A stretch of 43,804 nt of DNA, from assembly GCA_051439425.1 (NCBI GenBank), contig JBFRWD010000098.1:1-43804 (forward strand). The letters run 5' to 3'. The notes beneath the pieces were generated by a model. That model searched no databases, was not told where the DNA came from, and saw nothing but the letters and a program-made list of their open reading frames with translations. Shown here one piece after another: positions 39,424-43,804 of the stretch; position 1 is the first letter of the stretch; each line of letters begins with the position of its first letter. This DNA is from Synechococcus sp. GTDB taxonomy: Bacteria > Cyanobacteriota > Cyanobacteriia > Thermostichales > PCC-7336. A program made the position numbers and the translations under genes.

Positions 39424-40848
39424 ATGGGACGAACCATTACGATCGATCCAGTCACTCGCATTGAGGGGCATGCCAAGATTTCCATTCACCTAAATGATGC
39501 GGGAGAGGTGGACGATGCTCGTTTTCATGTAGTGGAGTATCGCGGGTTTGAGAAGTTCTGCGAGGGGCGACCGTTTACGGAGATGGCCGGAATTACGGCT
39601 CGAATCTGCGGCATTTGTCCGGTCAGTCACTTGCTGGCATCCGCCAAAACTGGCGACAAGATTTTAGCGGTCAAGATTCCGCCTGCGGCTGAGAAATTGC
39701 GGCGGATGATGAACCTAGCTCAGATTATTCAGTCTCACGCGTTGTCGTTTTTTCACCTCAGCACCCCCGATTTTTTGTTGGGCTGGGATAGCGATCCGGC
39801 CCAGCGCAACGTATTTGGGCTGATTGCCGCCAATCCCGATCTGGCGCGGGCGGGTATTCGCCTGCGCCAGTTTGGGCAGACGGTGATTGAGAAGCTAGGG
39901 GCTCGCAAGATTCATGCCGCTTGGACAGTGCCGGGCGGGGTGCGATCGCCCCTTTCAGCAGACAGTCGCCAGTGGATTATCGATCGCCTGCCGGAAGCCT
40001 TCGGGACAGTGCGGCTGGCTCTCGACCTGTTTAAGGGAATGTTGGACGATCGCCTGCAAGCTGAAATCGGTATTTTCGGGCAGTTCCCCAGCTTGTATAT
40101 GGGCTTGGTTGGCCCGGATGGGGAATGGGAGCATTACGACGGTCGGCTGCGGTTTGCGGACAGCGAAGGCACGATTGTTGCAGACGGGTTGAGGGAGGAT
40201 GACTATCGTGACTTCTTGGGAGAAGCCGTCGAGCCTTGGTCGTATCTCAAGTTCCCCTATTTCCGGCCTTGGGGCTATCCGGATGGGATGTATCGGGTGG
40301 GGCCGCTGGCTCGGCTGAATATTTGCAGTTGTATCGGTACCGAGGCTGCCGATCTTGAATTGCTAGAGTTGCGAGATCGGGCGGGTGGCATACCAACCTC
40401 GTCCTTTCTGTACCACTACGCCAGACTGATTGAGATTCTGGCCTGTTTGGAGAAGCTAGACATTTTGCTGGACGATCCCGATATTCTGTCCGATCGCTGT
40501 CGGGCTAGAGGAGGGGTGAATCAATTGGACGCGGTGGGGGTGAGCGAAGCACCACGCGGGACGCTATTTCACCATTACCGCGTGGATGAACACGGCCTAA
40601 TCGAACGGGTGAATCTGATTATTGCCACCGGGCAAAACAATCTGGCCATGAACAAGACTGTGGCCCAAATTGCCAAGCATTACATTCACGGCGACAGGAT
40701 TCCCGAAGGAATGTTGAATCGCGTCGAGGCCGGGATTCGCTGTTTCGATCCGTGTCTGTCTTGCTCAACTCATGCCGCCGGACAGATGCCCTTGCACCTG
40801 CAGTTGCTAGCTGCAGACGGTCGCGTTCTAGATGAGGTATTCCGATGA
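39424..40848 (+). CDS. hoxH: NiFe hydrogenase large subunit HoxH
   Basis: PVTRIEGH, L1 [11 protein letters not shown]2 [10 protein letters not shown] with a cleavable C-terminal tail. Confidence 0.96.
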
Positions 40849-41303
40849 AGGTATTAGCGATTGGTTATGGAAACCGGCTGCGGGGGGACGATGGCGTCGG
40901 TCCCGCGGTGGTCGAGCGGGTGGACAGACTGTTTGCATCAAAACGGAAAAAACTCTTGCGAACGCTCGCGGTACATCAGCTCACCCCGGAATTAGCTGCC
41001 GAGATTGCCCGATCGGATGTGGTCTGGTTTGTGGATGCTTGGGCAAACGGTCGCGGGCTGATGGTCGAGAAAGTTTTGGTCGACTCCTCGGCTCCATCCT
41101 CAGACCACGGTTGGAATCCCGGGGTTCTGCTCTATCTGGCTAAATCCCTCTACGGTGCCGATCCAATCGCATACCATCTATTGATCCCGGCAACTCAGTT
41201 CGATTACGGCGAAACGTTCTCCGAGATGGCCTGCAGTGGTGTCAAGTGGGCGATCCGGGCGATCGCGGCTTCGGTGGAGGAGGATGTCTACGGCCATGCA
41301 TGA
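40845..41303 (+). CDS. hoxW: Hydrogenase maturation protease
   Basis: [26 protein letters not shown]; directly follows hoxH. Confidence 0.88.
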
Positions 41304-41637
41304 GGTGGGGCTGATGGAAAATGCGCTGGCGATCGCGTTGGAGTATGCGGCGCGGGAACGGGCCGAGCGGATCGAGACGCTATCTCTGCGGGTGGGGACG
41401 CTGTCTGGGGTGGAGCCGGATGCGTTGCGCTTTGCCTTCGACATCGTTACCCAAAACACGATCGCCGAAGGAGCCCAATTGAACATTCAATCTTGCCCGA
41501 CTCGTTGCTATTGCGAGGTTTGTCAACGAGAGTTCGAGCCGGCGGAGATGGGTTACGACTGTCCTGTCTGTGACACCTGGAGCCAGTCGATTGTGCAGGG
41601 TAAAGAGCTGGAACTAGCCTCGTTGGAGGTGTCCTGA
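41296..41637 (+). CDS. hypA: Hydrogenase nickel metallochaperone HypA
   Basis: MHEVG, G.LSGVEPDAL.FAF, two CxxC motifs, GKELEL. Confidence 0.94.
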   Translation: MHEVGLMENALAIALEYAARERAERIETLSLRVGTLSGVEPDALRFAFDIVTQNTIAEGAQLNIQSCPTRCYCEVCQREFEPAEMGYDCPVCDTWSQSIVQGKELELASLEVS

Positions 41638-42422
41638 TGTGTAGCGATTGCGGCTGTAGCGATGTCAAATCTGTAGAGCTGGAGGGGACAACGATCGCGC
41701 TGGAATCCCCCGACCGTTCCCCTCGCACCCTCGACATTCACCAGCGTTTGCTGTCGAAGAACGATCGCTTTGCCCAACACAACCGCGATCGCCTGCAATC
41801 GTTGGGGTTGCTATCCCTAAACATCATGTCGTCACCTGGTTCCGGGAAGACGGCTTTGATTGAACGGACTGCCGAGATGTTGGCCCGAGAGGGCAAGCGG
41901 GTGGGGGCGATTGTAGGAGATTTGGCGACGGAGAACGATGCGCGGCGGTTGAGGGCGGCGGGGGCAGAGGCGGTGCAGATTACGACGGGGACGGCTTGCC
42001 ATTTGGAGGCGGAGGCGATCGGTCATGCGATGGATCGTTTGCCTCTGGAGACGCTGGATGTGTTGGCGATCGAGAATGTGGGGAACTTAGTTTGTCCGGC
42101 GGCTTACGACTTGGGGGAATCGCTGCGGGTGGTGCTGCTATCGGTGACGGAGGGGGAGGATAAGCCGTTGAAGTATCCGACGGCGTTTGAGGCGGCGGAT
42201 GTGGTGGTGCTAACAAAGGTGGATATTGCGGAGGCGCTGGGGTTCGAACGGGAAGAGGCCCTGGGGAATATTCGGCGGATGGCTCCACAGGCAGAGGTAA
42301 TTGAAGTTTCGGCGCGATCGGGGGGGGGGATGGATGAGTGGGTTGCCTATTTGCAAAGCAATAAGTCGAGCAGCAAGGATTCAAGCTTGACTGAACTATC
42401 ACTGACAAGGGACAGGCATTGA
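41637..42422 (+). CDS. hypB: Hydrogenase nickel incorporation GTPase HypB
   Basis: N-terminal CSDCGC, SSPGSGKT, TGTACHL, ENVGNLVCPA, EGEDKPLKYP. Confidence 0.95.
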   Translation: MCSDCGCSDVKSVELEGTTIALESPDRSPRTLDIHQRLLSKNDRFAQHNRDRLQSLGLLSLNIMSSPGSGKTALIERTAEMLAREGKRVGAIVGDLATENDARRLRAAGAEAVQITTGTACHLEAEAIGHAMDRLPLETLDVLAIENVGNLVCPAAYDLGESLRVVLLSVTEGEDKPLKYPTAFEAADVVVLTKVDIAEALGFEREEALGNIRRMAPQAEVIEVSARSGGGMDEWVAYLQSNKSSSKDSSLTELSLTRDRH

Positions 42423-42470
42423 AATCAGATAAAGAGAAGATTTTTCGGTGAAATGCGGGTAACACGCACG

Positions 42471-42499
42471 TGCATTGCTCACTCAATGCAAGAATTTTT
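42471..42499 (+). terminator. Possible terminator after hypB
   Basis: TGCATTG-ctcact-CAATGCA hairpin followed by AGAATTTTT. Confidence 0.35.
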
Positions 42500-42600
42500 A
42501 GGTGGCTGGGCGATCGCTTGTTTGGTTCAATCCGACTAATGTCTTGTTTCGGTATGCTATCCGGGCAAAACGCTAGTTTCAGGCCGAAGAAAAACCGGAA

Positions 42601-42749
42601 GTTTCCGCCTAAACACCCATTTCGAGGATATTATCCGGAAAACCCTTTCTATTAGACACCTGATTTGAGGTGTTATGCGAAATGTTTCCTCCTAATCCAA
42701 CCATAGAGGCTTATTCGGCGGCATAAGTCCGTCTAATCAATAGTTAGCC
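42601..42749. repeat. About 3.5 degenerate ~42-bp palindromic repeats ending in a GTTAG core (attI-like / recombinase-site array)
   Basis: Left arms at ~42602, 42646, 42685, 42727 (TTCCGCCTAA, TTCTATTAGA, TTCCTCCTAA, GTCCGTCTAA); GAGG at 42624, 42667, 42706; right arms TTATCCGGAA (42631), TTATGCGAAA (42673), TTATTCGGCG (42711). Confidence 0.6.
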
Positions 42750-43684
42750 ATCCAATATCGATGACAGATATCGCATCAACTTCGCCCCGGCCGTTCTGCT
42801 TTGTGCTTATGCCGTTCAGCACGGACTTCGACGACATCTATCAAATTGGCATCAAGGAAGCATGTGACGCCGCAGGCGCCTATTGCGAGCGCGTTGATGA
42901 ACAGATTTTCCACGAATCGATTCTCGAGCGTGTGTACAATCAAATCGCCAAGGCCGATTTGTTGATCGCGGACATGACTGGTCGGAATCCGAATGTATTT
43001 TACGAAGTCGGTTACGCACACGCTTTGTCGAAGCGAACGATTCTGCTCACACAAAACGCGGATGACATTCCGTTCGATTTGAAACACTTCCCCCATATCG
43101 TGTATGGCAATCGTCTGGTGGCACTTCGTGGCGACTTGAAGACTCGCATCGAATACTTCATCAAAAACCCGGTCGAGAAAATCAGCGGCAGCACGATTGA
43201 CATCGATCTGTTTTCGGGCAAACAAAACCTGTCAGCTGGCAATGCTGTCGGGCAGTTTCTGGCGAGCGAAGTCCCGAACGTAAAGATCACAGTGCATAAT
43301 GCGTCCGCCGAGACATTTTCACCCGGTGACTTCAAAATTGGTGCAATAACTGACAGCGATTTTCCAAAATTCCATGGCAAGAGCGTCCGCACGACGCCGA
43401 TGCCGGATGGCCATTTCCTTCACATGCTGCCCGATTTTGAACCCCTGTTTCCGAACGCGTTTGCCTCCTTTCATTTCATCCTGGAGCATAGCCATAACTC
43501 GCAATTCCTCGCGGAGATCGAGATCGATGTGACATTCCGTGTCTTTACGGCGTTAGGGACACGAGACTATCCAATCACTCTACGCAAGGTGAAAAGATAT
43601 TACTAACAATTTCGTGAACCGGAACGGCGAATCAGGGCGAAATAGAATGGAAAGCTTAACGTCGCCGCCCGGTTACGCTAGGCG
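42744..43684 (+). mobile_element. Integron gene cassette (single promoterless ORF plus attC)
   Basis: Starts at G|TTAGCC (42743-42749), 18 nt before the ATG; ends at G|TTAGGT (43684-43690); the ORF stop lies inside the attC R'' box, whose CTAAC complements the 5' GTTAG. Confidence 0.8.
42761..43606 (+). CDS. Nucleoside 2-deoxyribosyltransferase/TIR-like domain protein with unknown C-terminal domain
   Basis: CFVLMPFS...DDIY, RVDE, I.KADLLIADMTGRNPNVFYEVGYAHAL.K.TILL, DIPFDL in the N-terminal ~135 aa; the C-terminal ~140 aa look beta-rich and were not recognised. Confidence 0.75.
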   Translation: MTDIASTSPRPFCFVLMPFSTDFDDIYQIGIKEACDAAGAYCERVDEQIFHESILERVYNQIAKADLLIADMTGRNPNVFYEVGYAHALSKRTILLTQNADDIPFDLKHFPHIVYGNRLVALRGDLKTRIEYFIKNPVEKISGSTIDIDLFSGKQNLSAGNAVGQFLASEVPNVKITVHNASAETFSPGDFKIGAITDSDFPKFHGKSVRTTPMPDGHFLHMLPDFEPLFPNAFASFHFILEHSHNSQFLAEIEIDVTFRVFTALGTRDYPITLRKVKRYY

Positions 43685-43690
43685 TTAGGT
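43601..43690 (+). other. attC recombination site (90 bp)
   Basis: R'' TACTAAC (43601-07), 5-nt spacer, L'' CGTGAACC (43613-20); L' GGTTACG (43671-77), 6-nt spacer, R' GTTAGGT (43684-90). Stem CGT[G]AACCGG[A]ACGGCGA pairs with TCGCCGCCCGGTTACG, leaving two extrahelical bases on the left arm. Confidence 0.85.
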
Positions 43691-43804
43691 TTCTGCTGTC
43701 CTCAAGATGAAATTGGGGGCGCTAGCCTGCAATCTCGATAAGACTCTGACGTATTTCTTGATGCCTGCACATAGCATTTTCCTTGGAGTGAATGCATCTG
43801 CAAC

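Follow-up and report, generated by a model that had tools for sequence, protein, structure and literature searches.

We show here that the end of a cyanobacterial contig carries a well-formed integron gene cassette preceded by an attI-like leader, and we interpret it, with a probability of about 85%, as the leading cassette of a chromosomal integron that is degenerate and has no integrase. The DNA analysed (hereafter the window) is the entire contig JBFRWD010000098.1 of the Synechococcus sp. assembly GCA_051439425.1, 43,804 nt of the forward strand. The genome, referred to as G000, is a draft of 182 contigs and 4.8 Mb (96% complete, 1.1% contamination); the window's contig is C98, and C172, C33, C77, C153, C174 and C175 are other contigs of the same genome. 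G001 and G002 are genomes of the same genus, the latter closed, and searches among relatives covered 41 genomes (G000 and 40 relatives). The element follows hypB and comprises the leader, a cassette with one intact open reading frame (ORF), here called the cargo, and an attC site (Table 1). An earlier reading of the sequence, the original prediction, had described a well-formed integron cassette in a cyanobacterial chromosome with no integrase beside it. The match to an attC covariance model, the leader, the 941-bp bounds and the chromosomal surroundings bear this out. What that reading overlooked is the attI-like leader upstream of the cassette and the six other leader loci of the genome, four of which have detectable attC cassettes.

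The cassette holds a single ORF in its own orientation that ends in the R'' box, and its 941 bp fall within the usual cassette size range. GTTAG stands at the 5' boundary (42743-42747), the ATG follows at 42761, 18 nt past the G, and the cargo stop codon TAA (43604-43606) sits within R'' TACTAAC (43601-43607). R' GTTAGGT (43684-43690) fits GTTRRRY at 7/7 positions. Recombination in integrons falls between G and TT. On the top strand the site folds as CTAAC/GTTAG, five unpaired nucleotides, CGT-(G)-AACCGG-(AA)-CGGCGA opposite TCGCCG-(C)-CCGGTTACG, six unpaired nucleotides and R'. On the bottom strand an A.C mismatch turns into a G.T pair and the stem has 16 contiguous pairs with two single-base bulges, both on the '' arm. 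This bottom-strand architecture is common to eight further G000 sites. In all nine of these G000 sites C is the bottom-strand bulged base beside the L box, where the textbook base is G or T. The original prediction had named most of these traits, that is the R''-5-L''...L'-6-R' spacing, the two extrahelical bases, the mismatch that becomes G.T on the bottom strand, the stop codon inside R'', the 5' GTTAG and the short distance from GTT to ATG, and reading the sequence together with the folds reproduces each of them.

Recognition of the attC site was based on covariance models. Rfam has no attC family, and its scan of 42400-43804 returned two matches at chance level (E 1.6 and 3). A heuristic genome scan demanding 6/7 R''/R' pairs was rejected, as it gave 7171 candidates and missed the window's own 5/7 site; covariance models were used instead. 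The first model, R1, was built from nine G000 attC sites, the window's site included. It matched at E <= 0.001 in 29/41 genomes and found further G000 sites as well as arrays in relatives. The second model, R2, was built from 15 intI-adjacent attC sites of G001, G009, G011, G023, G034, G035 and G039 and holds no G000 sequence. In its alignment 85.7% of the cells pair, compared to 69.2% in shuffles, 13/20 pairs change on both sides and 0/500 shuffles equal it, values to be read in the light of an alignment that was fitted to the model and is hence biased towards structure. A covariance-model check had been proposed with the original prediction; run with R2, it gave 43598-43693 on the - strand (42.7 bits, E 4.1e-9) as the sole match in the 43.8-kb window. 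Over 125,653 bases R2 made 11 matches, the other ten of which are on C172, C33 and C77, within cassette stretches downstream of leaders. The R1 matches in the relatives are located upstream of intI and share its strand, for example in G001:C88, G009:C1, G011:C1, G023:C9 and C38, G034:C5, G035:C1 and G039:C47.

The second line of evidence is the leader. The window at 42485-42750 aligns to the C172 stretch between an intI fragment and the first cassette there, and the 15-mer CTAATCAATAGTTAG at the junction of leader and cassette is identical in both. A leader profile (nhmmer) retrieves seven full-length copies in G000, on C172, C98, C33, C153, C77, C175 and C174 (E 1e-74 to 2.5e-18). The copies are only ~65-80% alike, and in the alignment of the seven the homology stops directly after GTTAG. 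Six junctions share an identical AATCAATAGTTAG, the C174 copy being degenerate (CAATCAAAAATTAG). Degenerate TTAGGCGGA-like core repeats stand at ~42606-42623 (inverted), 42670-42689 and 42711-42730, and by analogy with attI1 they may be integrase-binding sites. In relatives, the leader profile matches just upstream of intI and points away from it (G001:C88, G039:C47 and G035); a sequence-only leader model likewise falls beside intI in G002 (4251 kb), G006, G018, G023 and G039. Given this position next to intI in relatives, the leader is best understood as an attI/intI-proximal region. An attI site heading the array is thus identified by homology only, as a putative integrase-docking site. Since the hypB stop codon and the leader are only ~100 nt apart, terminator-like hairpin included, the window's attI-like site has lost intI.

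The third line of evidence is loss of the integrase. As the original prediction had it, there is no integron integrase gene adjacent to the cassette; the whole contig C98 has no TIGR02249 match, and no intact intI is assembled in G000. The sole intI-like piece lies at C172:11251-11523, abuts lepA, covers TIGR02249 positions 1-91 with 87 bits (cut-off 265) and contains 4 stops. It is part of a degenerate integron beside lepA (C172 4476-11523, L005) that consists of the intI fragment, a leader and seven attC sites ending at ~9983, 9256, 8606, 7649, 6809, 5737 and 4553. The cassettes lie upstream of the intI fragment on the opposite strand and encode, among others, a TIR-domain protein and one that is bleomycin-binding/glyoxalase-like. 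G001 has the orthologous integron next to lepA and retains another part of intI there (positions 228-314). Remnants of the intI 5' end, of unequal length, are found upstream of the leaders on C172, C153, C174, C33 and perhaps C98. Five of the seven leaders are followed by attributed attC sites (seven on C172, two on C33, one each on C98, C153 and C77). The leader on C33 and its two cassettes (57100-59290; L006 9103-11290) stand directly after a phage-tail-like (contractile injection system) cluster. The first of these cassettes encodes a 347-aa RelA/SpoT-like protein (PADLOC PDC-S33, E 3e-21), whose stop codon likewise lies in R''.

The situation extends to the genus. Same-genus genomes have 6-7 distinct leader loci each, and at those of the platforms that were examined intI is either broken or missing. 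In G002 the leaders are followed by 0-5 attC sites, and two broken intI loci head arrays of at least 9 and at least 14 attC sites. The hypB locus of G001 has no leader, hence the hypB-side platform is not shared across the genus. Integron integrases score above the curated cut-off in 20/41 genomes, G000 falls below it, and many genomes hold fragments.

We propose the following history. The ~220-bp leader after hypB would be the remnant of an intI-attI region from which intI was deleted, and at its G|TT crossover a promoterless ORF and its attC would have entered as the 941-bp cassette. According to the established mechanism, an integrase would have bound the folded bottom strand of attC on the circular cassette, recognised the two extrahelical bases together with the R and L boxes, and joined this strand, by recombination at G|TT, to the double-stranded attI. 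Because attC sites of this type occur beside cyanobacterial intI and the leader is homologous to attI regions of relatives, the inserting integrase was probably cyanobacterial. Foreign machinery is not needed, because integrases are present above the cut-off in the 20 genomes mentioned. Transcription presumably starts in the leader. As no intact intI is assembled, the cassette is probably immobile as long as no integrase is provided in trans. The locus would be one of seven loci with a leader, with or without cassettes, in a genus that would carry many decaying integron platforms.

A second cassette probably follows the first, because the tail of the window is homologous to cassette starts of G002. 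In G002, six places resemble the ~60 nt that come directly after R' (75-80% identity); four of them lie inside integron arrays (L120 and L125) and two near another attC match. G002 has tandem attC matches ~180 bp apart (L124 7215-7848, L125 9337-9788 and L120 5306-5580), which form mini-cassettes. Their ~85-nt part outside attC holds a HIP1 site, and this element starts the window's second cassette, too. Cassette repetition could plausibly account for the break of the contig, and a BLAST search of the last 114 nt against G000 found no partner contig. A look downstream for more attC sites, suggested with the original prediction, therefore had a divided result: the contig ends before a second attC, and the tail resembles G002 cassette starts.

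Several observations weigh against this interpretation. R'' TACTAAC fits RYYYAAC at only 5/7 positions, the first two deviating, and the R''/R' pairing CTAAC/GTTAG amounts to 5 bp. The hairpin is no more stable than 200 shuffles (z -0.67 on the + and -0.81 on the - strand), with 55 and 40 shuffles folding equally well or better; with z near -0.7, plain folding energy is uninformative as a test of significance. R2 is not fully independent, because its training sites were chosen from R1 matches and one of the nine R1 rows was the window's site. The site is also absent from the whole-genome R2 listing, in which only 150/1711 first-look candidates were scored and which is unusable as a genome-wide count of false positives. 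The window has a single attC and the contig ends 114 nt later. Integrase-less arrays are classified as attC clusters that lack an integron-integrase (CALIN), which need two or more attC sites in 4 kb without intI, lone sites usually being dropped as possible false positives (Cury 2016, PMC4889954); with one attC before the contig end, the window differs from a CALIN in this respect. Neither the leader nor the rest of 42300-43804 has a match to the sigma-70 consensus (0 found, 1.5 expected by chance), which cyanobacterial promoters may not fit, and among the sequencing runs recorded as RNA none was listed as containing the stretch. Finally, downstream of the leaders on C175 (16715-16930) and C174 (13679-13895) no attC was detected; these two may be the most decayed platforms.

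A different view of the same loci is that they are not the debris of seven integrons at all. The dispersed attI leaders could be kept as landing and expression sites in a distributed integron that is served in trans by one integrase, possibly transient or horizontally supplied. We consider this a tentative possibility. If it were true, the hypB-side leader would be an active docking site and the first cassette could turn over between strains. The number of leaders has another conceivable explanation, which we regard as unlikely: leader and cassette together might form a mobile or duplicating module, and 6-7 copies per genome would be explained better this way than by many independent losses of intI. 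Besides the seven leaders of G000 and the 6-7 loci of each same-genus genome, the leaderless hypB locus of G001 and a directly repeated junction motif (ACTAATCAnnAGTT) close to the left end of most leaders speak for such a module. Its left ends, however, are not fixed, as seen from the intI remnants of different length, and leaders that are only ~65-80% alike give no sign of recent copying.

The degenerate cyanobacterial integron that we prefer also has to be weighed against an origin in another phylum. The original prediction had tentatively likened the stem sequence to attC repeats of Planctomycetes, implying that a Planctomycetes integron gave rise to the complete cassette with its attC, which the cyanobacterium then captured. 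The cargo lends itself to this idea. The search of 400 sampled genomes of the phylum returned no full-length relative, only matches to the N-domain (32-43% identity), the three same-genus genomes had no full-length homologue at the DNA level, and none of the best 80 genome loci of cargo homologues bears a cyanobacterial label. The top named homologues come from Planctomycetaceae (60%, an uncultured metagenome-assembled genome (MAG)), Acidobacteriota (57%) and Pyrinomonadaceae (56%). In the Planctomycetaceae MAG (L038) an attC match lies 7 nt after the gene. Around the 80 loci R2 made 23 matches, 23/23 in the same orientation relative to the gene, and matches at E <= 0.01 abut the homologue in five loci from other phyla (L061, L044, L038, L087 and L070). 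Thus, the cargo family is a recurrent cassette cargo across phyla, and the part of the capture claim that concerns the cargo is partly right in spirit. The part that concerns the attC is not supported. The only close relative of the window's attC in G000 is the attC of the first C33 cassette (78% over 87 nt, E 1e-13), which follows the RelA/SpoT-like gene, unrelated to the cargo. The site fits the model of attC sites beside cyanobacterial intI and does not align to the attC of L038 or to those of three other homologue cassettes. In published work on attC types, these sites are taxon-specific, with a Cyanobacteria type distinct from the Planctomycetes type and a separate model for each (Ghaly 2021, PMC8352920). 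For these reasons we regard the attC as a local type, its assignment to the Cyanobacteria type resting on our own model. The GC content of the cassette (50.1%) matches that of the genome (51.4%), and best identities of only 60-65% allow no donor of the cargo to be named. Capture of the complete cassette from Planctomycetes is thus very unlikely.

Similarly, a trans-acting integrase could have placed the cassette at a secondary, non-attI GTT site, with a merely coincidental similarity upstream. Lack of an adjacent intI would agree with this, and such insertion is a documented origin of integrase-less cassettes (Cury 2016, PMC4889954). With ~220 nt upstream that are homologous to six other leaders and share a common junction, and with leader-type sequence beside intI in relatives, we judge this highly improbable. 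That the hairpin is a transcription terminator or chance palindrome after an ordinary chromosomal gene can hardly be right, because its unexceptional folding energy and its position directly after a stop codon are set against a missing T-run, a covariance-model match with the correct strand asymmetry and bulged bases, the stop codon inside R'' also in the C33 cassette, an attI-like leader at the opposite end, and homologues in other phyla that sit in attC arrays.

The cargo belongs to a family with 3351 relatives, the best non-self one 65% identical, most of which carry a precomputed PF05014 match. The window's own protein reaches 26.3 bits for PF05014, below the gathering threshold of 28.8, and matches a PADLOC 'TIR effector' model at residues 51-113 (E 6e-11). 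In the AlphaFold model (predicted local distance difference test, pLDDT, 89), residues 8-142 match MilB (Z 14.5), a TIR domain (13.9) and nucleoside 2-deoxyribosyltransferase (NDT; 13.4); VIA-align covered the N-domain only. This part thus resembles NDT/MilB/TIR-like N-glycosidases in fold (PF05014; PDB 4ohr, 6evs and 4c6t; Z 13-14.5), with TIR domains scoring no differently from NDT and MilB. The cargo motif NVFYEVGYAHAL is invariant in 36 relatives, and the conserved acidic motif NVFYEVG, invariant in the 36 aligned relatives, is a further likeness. Unlike these enzymes, the cargo has a sub-threshold Pfam score and an extra beta-rich C-terminal domain of ~135 residues. For this domain no family match was obtained, and its best ESM Atlas score, 0.79, is below a level that shuffles often reach. 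Whole-model Foldseek matches in the PDB (GH3 glycosidases, TM ~0.3, root-mean-square deviation ~14-16 A) were rejected as an artefact of the two-domain topology. From the NDT/TIR-like fold and the invariant NVFYEVGYAHAL motif, the cargo would most likely be an N-glycosidase whose substrate is a nucleotide or NAD, and it might serve as a defence effector, an assignment held with low confidence. Other G000 cassettes carry TIR-like, RelA/SpoT-like (PDC-S33) and bleomycin-binding-like genes. Integrons are reported to stockpile anti-phage genes, and sister cassettes resembling defence genes (TIR-like and RelA/SpoT-like) would fit this.

The surroundings of the element look chromosomal. With the hydrogenase and maturation genes and 42 HIP1 sites in the window (genome density 0.85 per kb), a cyanobacterial chromosome is a fair description of the contig. 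The hyp region (window 41000-42316) is 78% identical to G001. It had been pointed out that no HIP1 site follows 42517; the last one indeed lies at 42510-42517, though the gap is not significant, since ~1.1 sites are expected in 1.3 kb and roughly one in three stretches of this length would have such a gap. Ten consecutive G at 42321-42330, within the 3' part of hypB, code for the glycine run of SARSGGGMDEW; the tract might be prone to slippage, or the spot sensitive to sequencing. The terminator-like hairpin behind hypB serves as a positional marker only, as chance alone predicts 1.5 such sites and one was found. From a public sequencing run comes a 2387-nt contig that spans 42300-43804 without differences; the run may be the source sample, and this agreement is therefore not independent. 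Excised form, empty-site form and joints were not found in the contigs of public runs (three runs, two without a match), which reach only 22 nt past the end of the window's contig and cannot show rare circles. In the metagenome run X1, a 9472-nt contig holds a near-identical 3' half of the attC (compared to window 43657-43688) with other flanks, followed by an ATG-led ORF; it is the third attC of that subtype in that sample. Two attC-like sites of G000 lie away from any detected leader, C46 43964-44060 (R1 E 0.00125) and C181 92-162 (heuristic scan only), and these may be single cassettes at secondary sites.

Table 1. Features of the integron-like element and its flank (positions in the window).
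Feature	Position	Strand	Remarks
Hydrogenase and maturation set	39424-42422		just upstream of the element; hoxH-like large subunit, hoxW-like protease, hypA, hypB
hypB, left chromosomal flank of the element	41637..42422	+	from the ORF list
Terminator-like hairpin and T-run	42471..42490	+	after hypB, just upstream of the leader; consensus scan
attI-like leader, ~220 bp	42531..42748	+	ends CTAATCAATA-G|TTAG; former intI-attI intergenic region by homology
GTT crossover point of the attI-like site	42743..42745	+	homology of the seven leaders ends right after GTTAG
Gene cassette, 941 bp	42744..43684	+	from the first T to the G of R'; bounds set by two GTT sites
Cargo ORF, 281 aa, intact	42761..43606	+	N-domain with NDT/TIR-like fold; C-terminal beta-rich domain without known family
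attC site, 90 nt	43601..43690	+ (recombining strand: bottom, -)	R'' 43601-43607, L'' 43613-43630, loop 43631-43661, L' 43662-43677, R' 43684-43690
Start of second cassette, cut by the contig end	43685..43804	+	first ~60 nt homologous to the 5' part of ~180-bp G002 mini-cassettes

Degenerate integrons occur in Xanthomonas and Treponema. Cyanobacteria encode integrons as well (Nemergut 2008; Cury 2016, PMC4889954), and the latter study names loss of intI from a complete integron as one origin of CALIN and counts intI pseudogenes near 15/279 of them. Integrons and integrase-less cassette arrays are hence already known in this phylum; unusual here are the many dispersed orphan attI platforms. Descriptions of such orphan attI sites in cyanobacteria were not found in a search of an open-access library, which is not proof of their absence. 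Like a CALIN or single attC, the window has an attC cassette without nearby intI. It differs in keeping a recognisable attI-like leader, which goes unrecorded in the attC-based category. Another close comparison is with sedentary chromosomal integrons whose intI has decayed, as the platform is vertically inherited and intI survives in fragments, seen in the orthologous lepA locus of C172 and G001. In contrast to these, the window's copy is without any intI, and seven platforms, mostly with one or two cassettes, share a 4.8-Mb genome.

The known mechanism of integrons is unchanged by these findings. A lone attC at a contig edge, which would normally be discarded, can be validated by an attI-like leader together with a lineage-specific attC model. 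The cargo represents a family of two-domain, NDT/TIR-like proteins found repeatedly as cassettes in several phyla. With 6-7 platforms per genome, and intI broken or missing at those examined, the genus offers a natural system for studying integron decay and the usability of orphan attI sites in trans.

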